Assembly (NCBI GenBank): GCA_049523215.1
Contig: JBEKNC010000006.1
Span: forward strand, 21,105-85,104
Origin: Bacteroidota bacterium
GTDB taxonomy: Bacteria; Bacteroidota; Ignavibacteria; UBA10030
Direction of reading: 5' to 3'
Length of the DNA stretch: 64,000 nt
Positions 6,841 through 44,116 of the stretch are shown piece by piece. A program made the position numbers and the translations under genes. The notes beneath the pieces are model-generated. The model was not told the DNA's origin and searched no databases. It saw only the letters and a list, made by a program, of their open reading frames with translations. Position 1 is the first letter of the stretch. Every line of letters starts with the position of its first letter.

Positions 6841-7458
6841 ATGAACATTGCGGTTTTCGCCTCCGGGCGCGGCTCTAACTTTCAAGCAATTCTCAGCGCA
6901 ATCGATGCCGGCCTTCTGTCGGCACGCGTCACCGTACTTATCAGCAATAAGTCTGATGCAGGTGCGTTTGAGATTGCACGCGCTCGCAGAATTCAAACAA
7001 GTCATCTTTCGCAGAAAATGTTTCCGTCGGAGGAAGCGCTTGCAGAGGCGATGCTTAATGTGTTATCCCAGCAGAGAGCAGAACTTCTTGTGCTCGCAGG
7101 ATATTTGAAGAAAATTCCATTGCAGGTGGTACGACGATACCGTAACCGCATTGTGAATATTCATCCTGCTCTGCTGCCGTTGTTTGGCGGAGCGGGAATG
7201 TACGGTCACTTTGTGCACGAAGCAGTCATTGCGAGTGGTATGAAAGTTTCCGGCGCCACGGTTCATCTTGTAGACGAAGAGTATGATCGCGGTCCGATTG
7301 TGATGCAAAAAACTGTCGAAATCATTCAGGAGGACACTCCGGATTTGCTCGCTGCAAAAGTACTAAAAATTGAACATGAAATTTATCCTTTAGCGTTGAA
7401 AGCCTTTGTTGAAGGAAAAGTAAAAATTGAAGGAAGAAAAGCTTGGATAACGTTATAA
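6841..7458 (+). CDS. purN: Phosphoribosylglycinamide formyltransferase
   Basis: [18 protein letters not shown]..., NIHPALLP. Typical PurN length. Confidence 0.9.
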
Positions 7459-35595: not shown

Positions 35596-36360
35596 TTACT
35601 TGCAGAGAAAATCTCCTTCGAGGAGGAGATGTCCGTTCTTCTGCCTCACCTGCGGTATCGGCATTTCATCGAAGGTTCTTCCGGAGAGCTCGCGGCCGGC
35701 TGCTTTCTTGCGGACACCACCCCATTGCTTAAAGAAAAATGGAACTTCTGCTTCCCGGCAGCGGCGCTTAATCTGCGTTACCCAGTCACGCTCCATCGGG
35801 CGCGCACCCGGACCCGATTCGCCGCCGACAATAACCCAATCAATTCCTCTCAGTGGAAGTCTTGAGATGGGGCCAAGCAGCGGTTCTAAGGAAAGAAATC
35901 TCACAGCTGCTGGCACTTTGACCAGTTCATGGATCCGGTCTGTATATTTTTGAGATTCGACGCTCACGCCCATCCAGACATTTTCCGGCCACGGGAGATA
36001 CGGCGCAATTTGTACTAACCGATCCGATCTCTTCGTGAGTATCTGGAAAGTATGCCAATGTGCACGCTTCATGGTATCAAAAACTTTTACGATGAAATCG
36101 CAGGGAACATCTTTATGCAATAAATCGCTCATCGAGTTCACAAAAATGACGCGCGGTTGTTTCCATTCGAGCGGCAATTCAACGATATCTTCCTGGAGCG
36201 TGACTTGAAATCCATTCCGATACCGTGATGATCCCATTGCCTGAAGCCGCATAGCCATCCGCTCTGCGTAGCAATTCTTGCAGCCCGGACTGATTTTACT
36301 GCAGCCGGTTACCGGGTTCCAGGTAGATTCAGTCCATTCAATATGAGATTTTATCGCCAT
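35596..36360 (-). CDS. Phage Gp37/Gp68-family (DUF5131) protein with an N-terminal three-Cys motif
   Basis: N-terminus [36 protein letters not shown] matches the hallmark IEWT..TWNP.TGC...SxGCxxCYA signature of PF07505. Confidence 0.7.
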
Positions 36361-36362
36361 GA

Positions 36363-37247
36363 TTAATCCTCGAAAAGAGGTCTTTGATCTGATGCATATT
36401 TTTTAACTTCTTTCCAATATCGATATCCTAAAGAATGGCGAGAAAAAAATGCCAAATGATATAGAGATAAATTTTTTTCATCTGATTTGATTTCAAGCAT
36501 TTGTTTAATCGATTCTTCTTTATAATTTAATGTAACCATTTGTTGTGCATATTCGTTCGCTAGAAATTTACGAAAACTTTTCCCTTTAATTTGTTCATTT
36601 TTCCAGCGACCTCTCCATTCTGATAATCCAAGAAATTTATCGATTCTTTGATTGTTATTCTCTATATAAATAGATTCGTTTCTGACTCCATCCATAGAAA
36701 GAGCAAGAAGAATCAAAAAATCAACATATCTTTGTGCACATAGAGTTCTGATCGTATCAAATTCTATATTTAAAGAGAATGGATCCACAAAACAGAAAGT
36801 TAAAACTTTGTTATTCCGAGAAGGCGTTGGAATAAGCTTTAAAACATCAGTGATTTTTTTATTGCAGTCACCTAATATATAATGTGCATTCACTTGTGGA
36901 TATTCAGATTCTACCCTTGTTTGCAACGCCTGTAATAATCCTTCATTTTCTTCACAAAAAATGTATTGATCAAATTTATTTGCTAGTCCTAAAGCAAGAA
37001 GGGGCGAACCCGCTAAGATTTTATCTGTGTTCCTAACTTTTGCCTTTCCCGAACCAGCAAAAAGATCAATATAGACAAGTTGATTCCATGAATGCCTTAT
37101 ACCCTTTAAAAAAAGATCACAATAGAGATGCACTAATTTATATTTTCTCTCTGCCCAACTCCCGACTTCTGGAATAATAAGCCCATCATCAGATGAACAA
37201 ATACCTGAATGGTCAATATTTAAGCTGTTATCAATTTTATTCCCCAT
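36363..37247 (-). CDS. TcmP-like 'three-Cys-motif partner' protein. Methyltransferase-fold with RsmD-like motifs
   Basis: Sits 3 nt upstream of the Gp37/68 gene. Motif I-like IDLFAGSG. Motif IV-like FCFVDPF (DPPF-like). Confidence 0.55.
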
Positions 37248-37361: not shown

Positions 37362-37787
37362 TTATTTCTTTTTCCCGCACTCAATACAATATCCTTTGTG
37401 AACACAAATCGTACCTTTACATCGGGAACAAGTCCATCTTATATCTTCGTTCTTTAAAAATTTTCTCATACTGAAATTTTTAATATTTTCAAGATTTTCG
37501 ATCATGCTCATATCGTATTTAGTTCGGTATCTTGTATCCAAATGTTTCAAATTATCGCAGGGGAAATTTCGGCATTCAAAACAAAACTTCGCTTTGCCTT
37601 TTTGAAATATTGTGCAGGTCTTGATTTTACATCTAACACGGGTGATCGGTTTATCGGTGTCCACTCCTCTACAACCGGGACATTTATTTTTTTCTCTCAA
37701 ATAAGCCATGCAAATGCCGCAGTTCATTCCGCAGGGGGCTACAAGAGAAAATTTATTCAAGGATTCCATCTTTTCTTTCTCACACAC
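37362..37787 (-). CDS. Cys-rich small protein, DUF3795-like
   Basis: APCGMNCGICMAY, CPGCRG, CFEC, CSRC, CIEC. 18 cysteines in 141 aa. Overlaps the repressor gene by 8 nt. Confidence 0.5.
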   Translation of the reverse strand: MCEKEKMESLNKFSLVAPCGMNCGICMAYLREKNKCPGCRGVDTDKPITRVRCKIKTCTIFQKGKAKFCFECRNFPCDNLKHLDTRYRTKYDMSMIENLENIKNFSMRKFLKNEDIRWTCSRCKGTICVHKGYCIECGKKK

Positions 37788-38442
37788 TCTTAATCACTTT
37801 TATGACGCGCCACATGAAAGTCACGTCCTTCTTGCGCACGACCATCGGTTCGTATTCGGGATTGAGTGGAATCAAATGTACAAACTGCTCATCGATTTTG
37901 ATCCGCTTCACGGTGTCCTCCTCATCCACGCGCACCACGCAGATATCACCGCTTCTCACTTCTAATTTTGGCGTTACCACGATGATGTCGCCGTTCTCAA
38001 TGCGGGGCGCCATGCTGTTTCCCTTCACTTCGAGTGCGAAAGCATTCGGGTCGCGAACATCATCCACCGTAATGTATCGGTCAGCATGATCGGAATGAAA
38101 CCGCTGACTCAATGCACCAGCTGGCACAGAGGCAAGCAAGGGGAGTGAAACGAGGTCTACTTTTTTATAACGGCTTGTCGGTAATGGTATAACCTTGGAT
38201 TTGTGCTGTTCAGCAGAAACCATCTCTCCTTCACCAGTCAGTAGCCAGTGAGCCGTTATGCCGGTTGCTTTGGCAATGCGCATGAGATAATTACTGTCAG
38301 GCACCTGTTCGCCTTTTTCCCAGCGTTGAACGGTGCGAGTGGCAATATCGATCTTCGCGGCAAGGTCAGCTTGATCAAATTGTTTTAACAACCGCGCTTC
38401 GCGGATGCGTTGTGCAATTGTAGATTTCATAGAGTTATTCAC
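37780..38442 (-). CDS. LexA-like / phage cI-like repressor (XRE-type HTH plus S24 autopeptidase)
   Basis: HTH: IAQRIREARLLKQFDQADLAAKIDIATRTVQRWEKG. Ala-Gly cleavage site VPAGAL. Ser in GNSMAP and Lys in TVKRIK. Confidence 0.8.
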   Translation of the reverse strand: MNNSMKSTIAQRIREARLLKQFDQADLAAKIDIATRTVQRWEKGEQVPDSNYLMRIAKATGITAHWLLTGEGEMVSAEQHKSKVIPLPTSRYKKVDLVSLPLLASVPAGALSQRFHSDHADRYITVDDVRDPNAFALEVKGNSMAPRIENGDIIVVTPKLEVRSGDICVVRVDEEDTVKRIKIDEQFVHLIPLNPEYEPMVVRKKDVTFMWRVIKVIKSV

Positions 38443-38471
38443 TTTCTTCGGAATTTTTTTCCACCACCCCT

Positions 38472-38882
38472 TTATCCCCTCCTCACAGAGGAGGGGACAT
38501 GGGGAGGAGTAATTTTCTCATTGTATCTTGTTGTCCATTCGTAAATCGTTTGAAGAACACCATCTATATTGTTGCAAACATCATCGTTGGTAAAGCGCAT
38601 AAAATGAATACCGAAAGATTCAATATACTTCTGCCGTTCGTTGTCATATTTCTCAGAGAGATAGCCATAGTGACTATCTCCATCAATTTCGATAGCGAGC
38701 TTGAGTTCTGGACAATAGAAATCAATGACATACTGATTCACACTATATTGCCGGCGAAATTTGAATCCATTCATTTGTTTTCGTGAAAGATGCAACCAGA
38801 TAACCGCTTCCGCCTTCGAAAGTGATCGACGTAATGCTTTACGTCGTGCTGTATATGTTTTGTTATTAAAGACAATCGACAT
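38472..38882 (-). CDS. DUF559 (Vsr-like endonuclease domain) protein
   Basis: YVIDFYCPELKLAIEIDGDSHY pattern. A GC-rich hairpin encodes the last 8 codons. Confidence 0.65.
   Translation of the reverse strand: MSIVFNNKTYTARRKALRRSLSKAEAVIWLHLSRKQMNGFKFRRQYSVNQYVIDFYCPELKLAIEIDGDSHYGYLSEKYDNERQKYIESFGIHFMRFTNDDVCNNIDGVLQTIYEWTTRYNEKITPPHVPSSVRRG
38476..38496. repeat. Perfect 9-bp-stem hairpin cccctcctc-aca-gaggagggg (REP-like). A related copy lies at 39160-39186
   Basis: Read directly from the sequence. Confidence 0.5.
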
Positions 38883-38913: not shown

Positions 38914-38929
38914 ACGACATAAATGTCAT
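38914..38929. promoter_or_regulatory. Candidate operator site 1: ACGACAT-AA-ATGTCAT imperfect palindrome
   Basis: About 35 nt upstream of the DUF559/repressor operon start. Inverted copy of the same motif at 39023-39040. Confidence 0.35.
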
Positions 38930-39014
38930 AATCAAAATAATGCTTTTTATCCCATATTGTCAATAGCTTTGTGATAGAGCGGAAAACGACGACGGATAGC
39001 ATCGGAATCACTTC

Positions 39015-39043
39015 TTGACAAGATGACAAAAATGTCGTATTCT
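39015..39043 (+). promoter_or_regulatory. σ70-like promoter candidate TTGACA-17-TATTCT pointing toward the imuA-like/polB genes, with operator site 2 (ATGACA-AAAA-TGTCGT) filling the spacer
   Basis: TTGACA at 39015-39020. Operator at 39023-39040. TATTCT at 39038-39043. Confidence 0.35.
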
Positions 39044-39199
39044 TTTTTAGGAATATAAGTTCTCATTACTCAATGAGAGTGTTAATAATGATAGAGGAAC
39101 AATTCCCTCTCCTCATAAAAGAGGGTTAGGGTGAGGTCAAAAAAACTGACCCCCATCTTAGTCCTCCCCTTGGAAGGGAGGAGACTAATAAAAGAATTT

Positions 39200-39991
39200 A
39201 TGAGCAAAATAAAACCCATATCTCCCGCCCAGCATCACCGCCGGTACCCTGCTCCGCAGCCAACCGTGGATATACACGATGATGCGGTGCCTATTCGCTC
39301 TGAGCGGATGATTCATGCCTTTGCAGACAAGCCCGGCAAGGTATTTCTGCTGTACGGCGAGCGGTCTATTTTTCAACTATCGCTTCAGATGGCCGCACAC
39401 GCGATGGTTCAGGGAAATCCTATTGCCGTTGTAGACGGCTGCAACCGTTTCGATGTGCACGCGCTTTCACGATTTGCACGCGTACGGAAAATAGACCCGA
39501 ACAAGTTCCTCAATCATATCTTCATCTCGCGCGGCTTCACGTGTTATCAAATGGAACAGGCTATTACACATAAGCTGCCGGCGTTTCTTGCTACCATTCA
39601 TTCAAGCACTGCACTGGTCTTTGGACTGCTCGACACCTTTTACGACGAACAGGCATCTCTGCGTGAAGTGCGGCAGATTCTTCAGAGACTGCTCGGCTCG
39701 TTTCAAGAAATGAAATCGAAAGGAGTCTCGCTCCTGCTGGTGTGTTTGGAAAGGACCGTTGCACCGCAGGAACGCAATCAGTTATTTACCACACTCAAAA
39801 ACGGTGTGGATCGCGTGTATAAACTCGATACCAATGAACGCGGATCGCTTCAGCTCTACTTAGAATCTCAACAGCCCGTGCACGAACAAATAAAAGGAAC
39901 ATTGAATTATGGGACGAACCGTACCCACCTTTACCAACCTGATCGATGCGGAACTGGCAAGCTGGTCGAAGTTCCGCCGCGGACTGCGTAA
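39200..39991 (+). CDS. ImuA/SulA-like RecA-fold protein (degenerate Walker A)
   Basis: KPGKVFLLYGERSIFQLSLQMAAHA...IAVVDGCNRFDVHALSRFA...VSLLLV. Matches the ImuA/SulA family pattern. No GKS/T lysine. The listed ORF begins at a GTG at 39131. ATG at 39200 used here. Confidence 0.5.
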   Translation: MSKIKPISPAQHHRRYPAPQPTVDIHDDAVPIRSERMIHAFADKPGKVFLLYGERSIFQLSLQMAAHAMVQGNPIAVVDGCNRFDVHALSRFARVRKIDPNKFLNHIFISRGFTCYQMEQAITHKLPAFLATIHSSTALVFGLLDTFYDEQASLREVRQILQRLLGSFQEMKSKGVSLLLVCLERTVAPQERNQLFTTLKNGVDRVYKLDTNERGSLQLYLESQQPVHEQIKGTLNYGTNRTHLYQPDRCGTGKLVEVPPRTA

Positions 39992-40206
39992 AGACGATCA
40001 GGAAGTCTTCGACGAAATATTCCGCGCTGCAAAACTGCATCTGGCAGAAAATTTTTATGCGATGCGTGCAGTTCCGTTCGAAAGCATGATGATGTCGATT
40101 GTAGTAGAACAGCAGAAGACGCTTCGGCGATTAGAGGAAGAAAGGAAGAAGTTAAGTAGATGAGTCTGTGAGTAGATGAGTAAGAGAAGGATGGAATAAT
40201 AGAACT

Positions 40207-42537
40207 ATGATTCAATCAGGCAATCACCCAATGGCTCAATCACGCCTCTCTGCCTGGCTGTTCGATGTGTATCCGTCTGAACGCGGCGTTACACTCTGGT
40301 TCATCGGCCGGAACGGTGTACGGCTGCGCTGCTTCCGAAAATTCACGCCCTCGTTCTTTCTTCACCTGAACAATTTCGACGCCAAGCGTGCGGCGGTTCT
40401 TGCCAATCAGTGCCCTATTCCAATATCACTTGTACCAACCACCCGTACGGAAATTTATTCCGGCGATTCCATCGACGTGCTGCAAGTCTTTGTTCATGAT
40501 CCGATGCGGTTCAAGAAAGTTGTATGGTACTTCGAGAAATTTTTTCCACACTTTGCATTTTTTAATTCCGATGTTTCCGTGGAACAGCAATTTCTGTATG
40601 AAACACAGCTGTTTCCGCTGGCACTTGGCGAGTATGAGGTCAGCAAGGAAGAAGAACTTCTCTCCTGGCATCTCAATGACAACCGTGAAGCGCCGGAATA
40701 TGAGCTGCCGCCGTTTTCCATTATGCAGCTTCGCAACAGTCCCGACTTTGTCGGGATGCCGCCGAAGTACCAAAAGTTTCTGCAATTAGAGATCAGTTAC
40801 GACAGCCGGACATATGCTTTAGAACAAAATTCGCCGCGCGAACTGCTCGAAGCGTTCAACTGGCATCTGCATCACTGCGATCCCGACTTGCTCGTTACCG
40901 ATTACGGCGATGCTGTTCTTCTTCCGAAGATTCTGCAGCTTTCCAAACAGTTCAACATTCCTTTGCTTCTCAATCGAGACACTGAGGCACAGCACCGCAC
41001 GACGAAGGAATCAAGTTTCTTTCAGTACGGAAAGATTGTCCACAAAGACGGCGCATTCACGCTCGCCGGGCGCTGGCATGTCGATGCGAACAATTCTTTT
41101 ACCGTGAGCGAAGCCGATCTTGACGGATTATTCGAGATGACACGTCTGACACAAATGTGCGGACAGCGGCAGGGACGCGCGAGCATCGGCACATCGATGT
41201 CATCGATGCAGCTTTCGTGGGCTTACCGCAACAATGTTCTTATTCCGTCGAAGAAGCGCGAACCGGAGGAGTTCAAGTCAGCTGCAACACTGCTGCTTGC
41301 CGACCGCGGTGGACTTATTTTTAACCCTCCGCTTGGCTATCACGAAGATGTTGCTGAACTCGATTTCGTCTCGATGTACCCAAACATTATGGTCAACAAC
41401 AATGTCTCGCCGGAAACGATCAACTGTCGATGCTGTAAAAATGAAGTTGTTCCGGAACTCGGTTACACAATCTGCGAAAAGCGGAGAGGCGTTGTGCCGG
41501 AGACACTTCGCGCTGTTGTCGCCAAACGTGCGTACTACAAACGGAAGAAAAAAGAATTCAAGGGAAAAGATGAAGCGCTTTTTAAACGGTACGATTGCCA
41601 GCAAAGTGCGCTCAAGTGGATGCTGGTAAGCTGTTTCGGATATCTCGGCTACAAGAATGCGCGCTTCGGCCGCATCGAAGCGCACGAATCAGTCAATGCC
41701 TTTTCGCGGGACGCCATTCTCACTGCAAAAGAAATTGCCGAGAGCCGCGGCTACAAGCTTCTCCACGCTATCATCGATTGTGTGTGGCTGAAAAAGCCGG
41801 GCGCGACACAGAACGATTACGAAGAGCTTACGCGTGAAATCTCCACACGTGTCGGTATTGATATTTCGCTGGAAGGCATGTACAACTGGATTCTTTTCCC
41901 TGCTTCCAAAACTGATCCGTATATCGCTACAGCAAATCACTATGTGGGATGGTACCGGCATGGTGACATCAAAATGCGCGGCATTGAAGCGCGCCAGCGT
42001 GATACGCCGAAGTTCATCAAGAACATGCAGAAAGCAATGCTGGATAAAATGTCCGCCGCAAAGAATGTCGAGGAAGTATCGGCACTCGTGCCGGAGATGT
42101 TGGAGATCGCACGCGACTTCATTGCAATTCTTCAAAGCGGCCGCGCAAACCCGATGGAGCTTGTTCTCAAACGCCACATCACGCATGAGGCCGATGAATA
42201 TCTCAATAACAGCATCAGCGCGGTTGTCTCAAAGATGGTAGAAGAAATGGGAGTACATCTCTCAGCAGGCGAGTCGATCGAGTTCATTATTCTCGATCAA
42301 TCCGGCAAGAAAAAGCCTGAAAAAGCTAAACCTGTTGCGTTGTACGCATTCGAGGATGGCTACGATATTGAGCAGTATACCGAGCTTGCCTTGCGGGCAG
42401 TGGAAACGCTTCTCCTTCCTTTCGGCTACGATGTACAGCGGTTGAAAGCACATTTTAAAATCGGCATACCAAAACAAAAGCGCCTGCAGGTACCCCAAAA
42501 AAGTCAGGAACTCCCGTTGTTCCGAATCCAGGTCTAA
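40207..42537 (+). CDS. Family B DNA polymerase (Pol II-like) with apparently degenerate 3'-5' exonuclease motifs
   Basis: Motif A DFVSMYPNIM. Motif B KWMLVSCFGYLGY. Motif C region HAIIDCVWL. Pol II-like N-terminus AWLFDVYPSERGVTLWFIGRNG. Expected Exo I (F/V)D(I/V)E(T) position is occupied by FSIMQL. Alternative start ATG 40231. Confidence 0.75.
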   Translation: MIQSGNHPMAQSRLSAWLFDVYPSERGVTLWFIGRNGVRLRCFRKFTPSFFLHLNNFDAKRAAVLANQCPIPISLVPTTRTEIYSGDSIDVLQVFVHDPMRFKKVVWYFEKFFPHFAFFNSDVSVEQQFLYETQLFPLALGEYEVSKEEELLSWHLNDNREAPEYELPPFSIMQLRNSPDFVGMPPKYQKFLQLEISYDSRTYALEQNSPRELLEAFNWHLHHCDPDLLVTDYGDAVLLPKILQLSKQFNIPLLLNRDTEAQHRTTKESSFFQYGKIVHKDGAFTLAGRWHVDANNSFTVSEADLDGLFEMTRLTQMCGQRQGRASIGTSMSSMQLSWAYRNNVLIPSKKREPEEFKSAATLLLADRGGLIFNPPLGYHEDVAELDFVSMYPNIMVNNNVSPETINCRCCKNEVVPELGYTICEKRRGVVPETLRAVVAKRAYYKRKKKEFKGKDEALFKRYDCQQSALKWMLVSCFGYLGYKNARFGRIEAHESVNAFSRDAILTAKEIAESRGYKLLHAIIDCVWLKKPGATQNDYEELTREISTRVGIDISLEGMYNWILFPASKTDPYIATANHYVGWYRHGDIKMRGIEARQRDTPKFIKNMQKAMLDKMSAAKNVEEVSALVPEMLEIARDFIAILQSGRANPMELVLKRHITHEADEYLNNSISAVVSKMVEEMGVHLSAGESIEFIILDQSGKKKPEKAKPVALYAFEDGYDIEQYTELALRAVETLLLPFGYDVQRLKAHFKIGIPKQKRLQVPQKSQELPLFRIQV

Positions 42538-42697
42538 TTTCGAGAAGATATTCTGTTTTGCTGAGATGATTATGCAAAACAAGATTTGAATTTCAGATGA
42601 TCTCAGATTATCTTCCAGTGTGGTATGTTGTACGACGTTAAGACTTCAAATGCTGTCTATGGTGTTTGAGGTCATTTCAAAAACTAAAGGTGACTTC

Positions 42698-44116
42698 ATG
42701 AAAAATTTTATTGTGTTTCTTTCCGCAGCTCTTGTACTTGCGCCTTTTCTCTTTGCAGATGCACATGCTGTCAAAGAAGATACGACGCTGTCCCGATCGC
42801 AAAAAATGCCGGAGAATACTGCCAACAGCATCGACAGAAATGCACCCGTTTTTTCTCGTGATAAGAATGTCCAAGATTCGGATACACTCAATGTGAATGG
42901 TGTTGCAGGATATGAAGATACAATACTAACGGAAACAAAAAGTTACCGGGAAACGCGTAAGAATTTTTCGCAATCAAGTCGAACTTTTGATGTATTATGG
43001 CGAAGCGAGCAAACCAATTGGGATAATTTTATTTTTCGGTATAACCGCGTGGAAAGTCTTTTCCTCGGCCTCGGTACGGGAAAGAAATTCTATTGGGATG
43101 GTGAAAAAGTCTGGAATGCGTACGGCAGCATCGGTTGGGGATTTAAATCGCACACGTGGCGCAGCAATTTGGGATTAGTGCGGCAGTTTGCGCTTCTTTC
43201 CGATGAAGGATCGGGAATTATTGAACTGGGAGCAGAAGGATATACTCTTACCGACACGAAAGACCAATGGATTATTTCACAAAACGAAAATACAGCGTCA
43301 GCCTTAGTGATTCATGAAGATTTTCGTAATTACTTTGAGCGCAAAGGTTTCACGATCCATACAGCGTACTATTTGAAGCATGATTATTGGAAGGGTGAAT
43401 TGACGCTGGCATATCTGGCGGATTCTTACGATTCTCTTACTAACAAAGTCGATTGGGCATTATTGGGCGGTAGGAAGAAGTTTCGTGCGAATCCTGCCAT
43501 TGATCCGGGCAAGATGCGCAGCGTGATGCTGAGCGGCGGAATCAGTACTGTGACAAAAACAAGCCGGGCACAAGAAGGATGGTGTTTGTTTGGGTCCGCC
43601 GAGTTTGCTAAAAAGAACTTGGGAAGCGAATTTGAGTTCTATCAATATATCTTCGATATACGGCGTTTCCAACCATTGGGACGATATGAGAATTTTAATG
43701 TGCGTGTACGCGTAGGCACTGCAACCGGTGTGCTCCCGCCTCAGAAAGAATACGAGTTAGGCGGATTGGGAACGATGAATGCATTTCCCTTCAAGTCAGA
43801 CATTGGCAACCGGATGATGCTCGTTAATATGGAATTCATTTTAAGCGGCAGTATTATGGATGATTTGAACTTTTGGCCGACATGGATTTTTCAGTATGTG
43901 AATATCATCCTCACCTCGGATGCCGGATTCACACGTTCCGTTCTTCCGTGTGCTAGTGCGACCCAGGCATTCGGCGGAATGAAATTGAACGAATTTCAGC
44001 ACAACTTTGGCGTAGCATTAGGAAACCGGATCGGCTCCTACAGGATTGGATTTGCATGGCGAACAGATCGACCAGCCCCGGTACAATTTCTTCTCAGGTT
44101 TAACAGGCCATTCTAA
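42698..44116 (+). CDS. Hypothetical secreted protein, probably an outer-membrane β-barrel (C-terminal ...RFNRPF)
   Basis: Signal peptide MKNFIVFLSAALVLAPFLFADAHA after the RBS aaagg. Terminal Phe. β-rich composition. Confidence 0.5.
   Translation: MKNFIVFLSAALVLAPFLFADAHAVKEDTTLSRSQKMPENTANSIDRNAPVFSRDKNVQDSDTLNVNGVAGYEDTILTETKSYRETRKNFSQSSRTFDVLWRSEQTNWDNFIFRYNRVESLFLGLGTGKKFYWDGEKVWNAYGSIGWGFKSHTWRSNLGLVRQFALLSDEGSGIIELGAEGYTLTDTKDQWIISQNENTASALVIHEDFRNYFERKGFTIHTAYYLKHDYWKGELTLAYLADSYDSLTNKVDWALLGGRKKFRANPAIDPGKMRSVMLSGGISTVTKTSRAQEGWCLFGSAEFAKKNLGSEFEFYQYIFDIRRFQPLGRYENFNVRVRVGTATGVLPPQKEYELGGLGTMNAFPFKSDIGNRMMLVNMEFILSGSIMDDLNFWPTWIFQYVNIILTSDAGFTRSVLPCASATQAFGGMKLNEFQHNFGVALGNRIGSYRIGFAWRTDRPAPVQFLLRFNRPF

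Follow-up and report, generated by a model that had tools for sequence, protein, structure and literature searches.

Adjacent genes for a TcmP protein (TIGR04474) and a three-cysteine protein of the DUF5131, or phage Gp37/Gp68, family (PF07505) are listed by PADLOC as the candidate systems PDC-M41 and PDC-M30. The two families are found in many bacterial phyla, some archaea, plasmids and 180 sequenced phages. Here we analyse one such pair, at positions 35596-37247 on the minus strand of a 64,000-nt stretch of a Bacteroidota genome (the window). It is of the same kind as the PADLOC systems, since the two genes are adjacent and co-oriented and score far above the thresholds, and the models PDC-M41A (90 bits) and PDC-M41B (397 bits) match in adjacent genes, so that both components are present. 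The PADLOC entry is a candidate only, and the surroundings differ, consisting of an SOS/PolB2 cassette and housekeeping genes rather than a defence island. Our analysis firmly supports a genuine, obligate module of TcmP and a radical-SAM (S-adenosylmethionine) protein, of the kind already catalogued, which in this genome lies in an SOS-type unit with a PolB2 mutasome.

Four other described systems provide points of comparison. Spore photoproduct lyase (SPL; PF20903/TIGR04070) is a radical-SAM DNA repair lyase with a CX3CX2C motif that works without a methyltransferase-fold partner, whereas DUF5131 has CX6CX2C and is paired here with TcmP. RlmJ, the 23S rRNA m6A2030 methyltransferase (RlmJ/ComJ family), acts alone on rRNA and carries DPPY where TcmP proteins carry DPF, DPY, DPT or DPH, and it has no detectable sequence homology with TcmP. 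The LexA-regulated radical-SAM genes of bacteria, namely the SplB-like genes (COG1533) and the pair formed by a COG4277 radical-SAM gene and UDG, are under SOS control and uncharacterised with respect to substrate (PMC8565304), but they belong to radical-SAM families different from DUF5131 and none has a TcmP-type partner. Finally, the PolB2 mutasome cassette of Timinskas et al. 2025 (PMC11791011) shares with the window operon its gene order (iRadA-PPB2-PolB2), the MGRT start of PPB2 and the association with lexA. Genes for LexA, SRAP and DUF72 proteins are enriched near polB2 in that survey; DUF5131 and TcmP are not reported there.

Sequence and structure of the two proteins

The pair consists of the following genes:

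36363 to 37247, minus strand: tcmP, encoding a class I Rossmann methyltransferase-fold protein of 294 residues
35596 to 36360, minus strand: DUF5131 (phage Gp37-Gp68 family) gene, encoding a 254-residue protein of a radical-SAM superfamily subgroup with the motif C20-x6-C27-x2-C30

A preliminary description of the locus had placed both open reading frames at these positions on the minus strand, and both are real; the spacing of 3 nt that it gave is in fact 2 nt (TAA-TC-ATG). The family assignments it proposed were borne out by profile searches, well above the cutoffs in each case. TcmP matches the TIGR04474 hidden Markov model with E=1.4e-41 and 143.2 bits (cutoff 53), and the DUF5131 protein matches PF07505 with E=9e-102 and 340.1 bits (gathering threshold 28.9) as well as phrog_2045. 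A Pfam scan returned no match for TcmP, the RlmJ family included, and neither protein gave a meaningful match in sequence searches against PDB chains.

The AlphaFold2 model of TcmP, built with a homologue alignment as input (pLDDT, predicted local distance difference test, 92), has the Rossmann methyltransferase fold that had been anticipated, with the Gly-rich motif I, the acidic residue after strand 2 and the motif IV after strand 4 that mark class I SAM-dependent methyltransferases. The motifs of the window protein comprise K35 and Y42 in the N-terminal helix, D61-LFAG-S-G67 (motif I), E99/E100, G126-D127 and D155-P156-F157 (motif IV). An alignment of 108 bacterial, plasmid and viral TcmP sequences shows that K35, Y42, D61/G65/G67, D155-P156, W211 and L265 are invariant. 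The SAM motif DLFAGSG had therefore been read correctly at residues 61-67. The DPPF-like motif IV is present as VDPF at 154-157, but D-P alone is conserved: the window has D-P-F-S and its relatives have DPY, DPT or DPH followed by G or S, so that the canonical DPPF/DPPY is absent. The analogy drawn with RsmD and the DPPF motif is imprecise, and the nearest folds are RlmJ and Trm1. A profile comparison of TcmP with RlmJ by hhalign, with an approximate RlmJ query, gave a probability of 1%, and the resemblance is purely structural. Residues C98, C128 and C152 of the window TcmP were considered as an Fe-S site and rejected, as they are not conserved across the broad family in the 108-sequence alignment. 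Long TcmPs (370-430 residues) carry an extra C-terminal winged-helix domain (PF22560). A profile search of the whole library places TcmPs in about 4,700 clusters at 50% identity. SMa2243 of S. meliloti is also a TcmP; in a table of genes with raised expression in a nolR+ strain it comes right after SMa2245, the Hna defence gene.

The N-terminus of the DUF5131 protein has the family signature given in the preliminary description, with IEWT at residues 7-10 and C20-x6-C27-x2-C30-Y31, and the three cysteines are invariant among 54 homologues. Its AlphaFold2 model, also built from a homologue alignment (pLDDT 83), is a partial (beta/alpha) barrel with the cluster loop after strand 1, as in the radical-SAM superfamily, which agrees with the Fe-S or radical-SAM-like fold suggested beforehand. 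The best structural match is SPL, and the sole characterised structural relative of DUF5131 is a DNA repair lyase. The protein nevertheless falls outside the SPL family, with no match to the models PF20903 and TIGR04070, and hhalign gave a probability below 1% against the SPL-like domains of the TcmP fusions described below; the two are related at the level of fold or superfamily only. RadicalSAM.org places DUF5131 in Megacluster-5-2, beside SPL at 5-3, and the CX6CX2C motif is stated for Megacluster-5-2 (PMC9477430), hence a possible Fe-S or radical-SAM-like nature of the family is already in the classification literature. A DUF5131 profile search gave at least 8,000 matches, and the family is present in 180 phage records.

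TcmP is always associated with a radical-SAM partner

A scan of one genome per species yielded 483 TcmP relatives, most of them from soil Acidobacteriota, and the counts of genome loci given here refer to the best 80. DUF5131 lies directly downstream of TcmP on the same strand at 79 of these, the remaining locus being cut by the end of its contig, and this pairing is far beyond chance. The 80 loci have no conserved third gene, and the two genes on either side belong to a wide variety of housekeeping families. Pairwise identities of TcmP and DUF5131 are correlated (r=0.69, Mantel p=0.001). Among DUF5131 loci from IMG/VR, TcmP adjoins in 41 of 80 and is missing in 39, and where present it may be upstream and co-oriented, downstream and co-oriented, or convergent. 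Adjacency has thus been kept through rearrangement, which is strong evidence of functional linkage. When the window TcmP was run by tblastn against the phage collection that holds the 180 DUF5131 records, nothing matched; Synechococcus phage Ssp-JY39 and Gordonia phage Angelique nevertheless carry divergent TcmPs, convergent to DUF5131, that score 216 and 125 bits with TIGR04474.

TcmP is also found fused to a different radical-SAM domain. For example, the 634-residue protein P0387 joins TcmP (residues 27-300) to a radical-SAM domain with the motif CPFDCSWCYL, and this domain matches solved spore photoproduct lyases by sequence (E=5e-8). More than 50 cluster representatives, out of 586 matches, align over the full length of such fusions of about 630 residues and carry PF20903. 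A second class, of about 710 residues, combines TcmP with both PF22560 and PF20903. TcmP::SPL fusions are represented in Deltaproteobacteria, Marinimicrobia, Nitrospirota, Latescibacterota and a Methanophagales archaeon; in our set the family comprises P0387 and P0391-P0509, at loci L173-L185.

Across the 80 genome loci and the fusions TcmP was never seen without a radical-SAM partner, while DUF5131 often occurs without TcmP. The partner comes from the part of the superfamily around SPL and is supplied in trans as DUF5131 or in cis as an SPL-family domain. The partnership, which the preliminary description gave as recorded in family databases, is obligate from the TcmP side. This asymmetric distribution argues that the radical-SAM enzyme is the core of the module and TcmP the accessory. 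A partner that is often solitary, together with a TcmP that never is, is the opposite of restriction-modification logic.

Probable SOS-type control and the PolB2 mutasome

In the window the pair ends a minus-strand series of five genes, encoding in order a DUF559/Vsr-like protein, a LexA-like repressor, a DUF3795 protein, TcmP and DUF5131, which faces a divergent PolB2 operon:

35611 to 35630, minus strand: terminator-like hairpin at the 3' end of the DUF5131 gene, the probable operon end
37362 to 37787, minus strand: DUF3795 Cys-rich protein (PF12675), 141 residues with 16 Cys; GC 36%; overlaps the repressor stop by 8 nt
37780 to 38442, minus strand: LexA-like repressor, with a lambda CI-type helix-turn-helix and an S24 peptidase (PF00717, PF01381/PF07022); Ala108-Gly109, Ser143, Lys179
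38472 to 38882, minus strand: DUF559/Vsr-like endonuclease-fold gene (PF04480), GC 39%, between the promoter/operator and the repressor gene
38914 to 38929, no strand: operator-like palindrome ACGACATAAATGTCAT, just downstream of the minus-strand -10 box
38934 to 38963, minus strand: sigma-70-like promoter TTGACA-18-TATTTT, for the DUF559-lexA-like-DUF3795-tcmP-DUF5131 unit; -35 box conserved in L023
39015 to 39043, plus strand: sigma-70-like promoter TTGACA-17-TATTCT, for the divergent PolB2 mutasome operon
39023 to 39038, no strand: operator-like palindrome ATGACAAAAATGTCGT, within the spacer of the plus-strand promoter
39131 to 42537, plus strand: PolB2 mutasome iRadA-PPB2-PolB2 (PF00136 and PRK05761 matches), divergent and probably co-regulated
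39131 to 39991, plus strand: iRadA, first gene of the mutasome
39909 to 40163, plus strand: PPB2, beginning MGRT, with an 83-nt overlap with the end of iRadA
40207 to 42537, plus strand: PolB2, third gene of the mutasome

The repressor has the features of a self-cleaving S24 protein, namely HTH_3/CI and Peptidase_S24 domains, the Ala108-Gly109 pair, Ser143 and Lys179, and its architecture is the same as that of the non-canonical LexA of Bacteroidetes (PMC8565304). In our scan the two best sigma-70-like promoters both fall within the divergent region of 250 bp, one per strand and each with 10 of 12 consensus matches. Each promoter overlaps one palindrome, ACGACATAAATGTCAT or ATGACAAAAATGTCGT, which are near-identical and share the core GACA-N4-TGTC. 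Exact GACAWAAATGTC sites occur only twice in the window, at 38914-38929 and 39023-39038. L023, a locus from an Ignavibacteriaceae genome, has identical copies of the two palindromes and of the two -35 boxes, although the DNA between them has diverged. The published Bacteroidetes LexA boxes were rejected as the operator here: CTAA-N5-TTAG does not occur in the window, and GGA-N5-TCC shows no enrichment there (14 sites against 12.4 expected). We propose instead that the two palindromes are the candidate operator motif of this CI-type LexA, which would be unlike either of the two published motifs.

Both divergent operons are thus candidates for SOS-type control, judging from the promoters and palindromes. 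The preliminary description had tcmP and the DUF5131 gene co-transcribed with a DNA-damage-type repressor. The nature of the repressor is upheld by its residues, by the conserved operators and by similar linkage in other lineages; the DUF3795 gene and a gap of 114 nt separate the repressor gene from tcmP, and co-transcription is probable rather than established. No terminator-like site was found in this gap, and there is one at the end of the DUF5131 gene.

SOS-linked genes adjoin the pair at 7 of the 80 genome loci in addition to the window (L004, L012, L017, L023, L053, L066 and L080), in at least four lineages, which is far above chance adjacency for such rare genes. A canonical LexA (LexA_DNA_bind and S24 domains) is encoded directly upstream of tcmP in L066 and L080, and a CI-type LexA upstream of tcmP in L023. 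In L066 the lexA promoter contains a canonical E. coli-type SOS box, TACTGAAAATATTTTCAGTA, at 7040-7075, 315 nt upstream of tcmP. PolB2, TcmP and DUF5131 genes follow one another on one strand in L004 and L012. In L017 (2780-6712) and L053 (1627-5948), both from Methylomirabilia, a gene for an iRadA-like protein and one for an SplB-like (Rv2578c/PA0069-family) radical-SAM protein directly precede tcmP-DUF5131, so that the putative damage-response cluster has radical-SAM enzymes of two kinds; genes of the SplB-like type are established members of LexA regulons (PMC8565304). The naming of a large open reading frame downstream in L049 as DnaE2 was a guess without support and was dropped.

Base composition and divergence of TcmP

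In the window, the GC content drops sharply at the 2-nt junction between the two genes of the pair: tcmP has 32% GC (22% at third codon positions, GC3) whereas the DUF5131 gene has 50% (GC3 53%), and the lexA-like and PolB2 genes are also at about 50%. The same tendency is general, with TcmP below its flanks at 74 of 74 loci by a mean of 7.9 points, and DUF5131 lower by 2.5. L023 is syntenic with the window at about 78% nucleotide identity, which suggests that the window comes from an Ignavibacteria-like organism. Because the TcmPs of the two loci are 48% identical whereas the flanking proteins are 78-89% identical, TcmP was replaced, or evolved much faster, in the lineage of the window or of L023. 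Of the 69 locus pairs that exceed 80% identity in DUF5131, three are discordant, and this one is the most extreme. A swap confined to the N-terminus of TcmP was rejected, as the divergence from L023 is uniform along the protein.

Restriction-modification and mobile contexts

The closest metagenomic relatives of the window TcmP are found in operons with type IIG/IIL-like enzymes. The TcmP of P0010 (60% identical) overlaps the end of a gene for a 1155-residue MmeI/Eco57I methyltransferase, preceded by RadC-N and followed by DUF5131. At P0007 (55% identical) an HSDR_N+MmeI_Mtase+TaqI_C protein, SIR2_2, TcmP and DUF5131 are encoded with gaps of 0-32 nt, and the tight type IIG-SIR2_2-TcmP-DUF5131 operon (L191 800-6610) may represent a multi-gene defence system. 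A weakly MmeI-like gene lies upstream at P0003 and a gene for a 1355-residue MmeI-like protein two genes upstream at L006. Fusion loci have similar neighbours, with RadC and an Eco57I/MmeI-type methyltransferase often preceding the fusion. One has RadC and a 1388-residue Eco57I/MmeI-type methyltransferase before the TcmP::SPL fusion; another has RadC, an HSDR_N_2+N6_Mtase protein, an S subunit and the fusion, inserted between ybaB and recR; in a third the fusion is followed by a 271-residue protein and an N6_N4 methyltransferase. The neighbouring methyltransferases are only 21-27% identical to one another, so the linkage to restriction-modification is either old or has arisen repeatedly. The close relatives P0011 and P0013 and the fusion P0434 are without neighbours of this type. 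Defence-island surroundings are seen at P0007, P0010, L006 and several fusion loci.

The families are also carried by mobile elements. C5 DNA methylases adjoin DUF5131 in phages Bakery, Che9c and RcapNL (three of seven curated phages), and Gordonia phage Angelique has a TcmP-DUF5131 pair with the integrase on one side and the immunity repressor on the other. On the Burkholderia pseudomallei plasmid NZ_CP009155.1 (L169 3610-6792) DUF5131 is flanked by a long co-oriented and a short divergent TcmP, and this trio is transposon cargo of Tni type, in a TniB/TniQ context.

Other features of the window

Arginine-biosynthesis genes and an M28 peptidase gene lie beyond the cassette, for which reason the locus is regarded as chromosomal and not part of a prophage. 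Between PolB2 and argC, an open reading frame for 498 residues (42620-44116, plus strand) has a signal-peptide-like N-terminus and no Pfam match on record. The DUF559 and DUF3795 genes are low-GC, lineage-specific insertions; in L023 the order is promoter/operator, lexA-like gene, tcmP and DUF5131, and neither is found at these positions. DUF3795 was considered as a third conserved component and rejected, being absent from all 80 related loci including the syntenic L023. Its product could be an Fe-S or Zn protein, and a role as electron donor is pure speculation. A hairpin with 17-bp arms (38468-38504) overlaps the 3' end of the DUF559 gene; the idea that the GC-rich hairpin near 38479 is a dispersed repeat was rejected, as it occurs once in the window.

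Possible functions of the module

The reading that we favour, tentatively and with somewhat less than even confidence, is that TcmP and DUF5131 form a two-enzyme SAM-dependent module for DNA base modification in self/non-self or anti-restriction biology. On this scheme C20, C27 and C30 of DUF5131 would hold a [4Fe-4S] cluster, which would cleave SAM to the 5'-deoxyadenosyl radical, and the radical would take a hydrogen from a base or sugar of the DNA, as it does in SPL. TcmP, the obligate accessory, would bind the DNA target and then methylate it or present it to the radical-SAM partner. The net result would be a covalent base modification, and in this genome the pair would be made upon DNA damage, through the LexA-like repressor and its putative operator at the promoter of the unit, with the PolB2 translesion mutasome transcribed divergently. 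We favour modification because TcmP has conserved SAM and D-P motifs and evolves fast, because the module is associated with restriction-modification, SIR2 and RadC genes and with phages, plasmids and transposons, and because PADLOC lists the pair. The nucleic-acid target is very probably DNA, given the winged-helix domain of long TcmPs and the DNA enzymes encoded nearby.

A number of results weigh against modification. The residue after D-P in motif IV varies (F, Y, T or H) and the (D/N/S)PP(Y/F/W) signature of amino-methyltransferases is therefore not seen, the nearest folds of TcmP are the RNA methyltransferases RlmJ and Trm1, and no hypervariable target-recognition region was found in TcmP, whose divergence is even along the protein. 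Nearby methyltransferases differ in chemistry (C5, N6 and N4/N6), which makes a single methylated substrate of DUF5131 unlikely. A general link between solitary DUF5131 and DNA methylases is weak, since in an unbiased sample of TcmP-less IMG/VR loci only 2 of 81 immediate-neighbour proteins matched a DNA methyltransferase family. There is no defence-island signature in the window or at most of the 80 genome loci, where housekeeping genes prevail, and the SOS, PolB2 and SplB-like neighbours are at least as suggestive of repair as of modification. The preliminary description knew of no function for the pair, and the searchable literature agrees: no function, activity, modified nucleoside or phenotype was found there for any member, with mentions at the level of annotation only, and on anti-phage activity the literature found merely lists PDC-M30. 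The earlier suggestion of a base-modifying methyltransferase working with a Cys-cluster enzyme thus stands as regards the folds and the partnership; base modification itself is plausible rather than established, and repair fits about as well.

Repair is a close rival, possible though in our view rather doubtful. On this view DUF5131 would act as a radical-SAM lyase akin to SPL and undo, by direct reversal, a pyrimidine lesion that is bulky or cross-linked, such as the spore-photoproduct-type dimers of dehydrated or condensed DNA in desiccated soil bacteria and packaged phage genomes. TcmP would be a lesion-binding or base-flipping partner that possibly re-methylates the DNA, and the operon would serve SOS repair together with the PolB2 translesion mutasome. 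In structure DUF5131 matches SPL best, both belong to Megacluster-5 of RadicalSAM.org, and TcmP is fused to bona fide SPL-family domains. The genomic contexts point the same way, with LexA (L066, L080, L023 and the window), PolB2 (L004, L012), iRadA-like and SplB-like genes (L017, L053), RadC and recR/recO among the neighbours, and SplB-like radical-SAM genes are members of the LexA regulon (PMC8565304). The operators are conserved in the window, and soil Acidobacteriota are the source of most matches. Carriage by mobile elements would also fit, as LexA-controlled UV-protection genes are common on such elements. On the other hand, it is not obvious why a repair lyase should need a SAM-binding partner of methyltransferase fold with a conserved catalytic D-P, and DUF5131 has CX6CX2C instead of CX3CX2C and no match to the SPL models. 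A fast-evolving, AT-rich protein whose alleles are swapped between close relatives would be unusual for repair, and tight operons with MmeI/Eco57I-type restriction-modification genes and SIR2 are unexpected.

It is improbable that the module works on RNA, with TcmP methylating a tRNA or rRNA base and DUF5131 carrying out a radical step on the same nucleotide, perhaps to counter or mimic tRNA-targeting defence. The folds nearest to TcmP would suit this idea, as would the many radical-SAM enzymes that act on RNA (RlmN/Cfr, MiaB and TYW1), and PrrC, an anticodon nuclease embedded in restriction-modification loci, is a precedent for RNA-directed modules in such places. However, the informative neighbours (LexA, PolB2, SplB-like proteins, DNA methyltransferases and RadC) are all DNA enzymes, the radical-SAM domain of the fusions is of the same family as a DNA lyase, and TcmP has no Pfam RlmJ-family match. 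It is still more improbable that the pair follows a restriction-modification-like logic, in which DUF5131 would be a radical-based DNA-damaging effector and TcmP its cognate protective methyltransferase. Strict adjacency and co-evolution of the two genes, their PADLOC candidate status, their position in the prophage immunity region of phage Angelique and the plasmid DUF5131 flanked by two TcmPs could all be explained in this way. The distribution is the reverse of that in restriction-modification systems: the supposed toxin is often solitary (TcmP is missing from 39 of 80 viral loci, and tblastn with the window TcmP gave no match in the collection with the 180 DUF5131 phage records), while the supposed protective methyltransferase is never seen without its radical-SAM partner. 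Moreover, the fusions put both activities on one polypeptide, and TcmP has no variable specificity domain.

A bolder reading can be framed, which we consider unlikely as a whole: the module would be the first radical-SAM machinery to act directly on DNA in conflict biology, either writing an unseen hypermodified base or serving MmeI/PglX-type restriction-modification systems as effector or accessory, and it would have come repeatedly under LexA control beside translesion polymerases. If this were true, immunity or epigenetic marking would be tied to the DNA-damage response. The pair itself is not new; what is new is the fusion of TcmP to SPL-family domains, the recruitment to SOS/PolB2 units and the linkage to operons with MmeI-type restriction-modification genes, and these associations make the function directly testable. 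Should the module prove to carry out either a new DNA modification or a new direct-reversal repair, a reaction class would be added to DNA biology, a PADLOC candidate would be explained and the bacterial PolB2 mutasome cassette would gain a further component.

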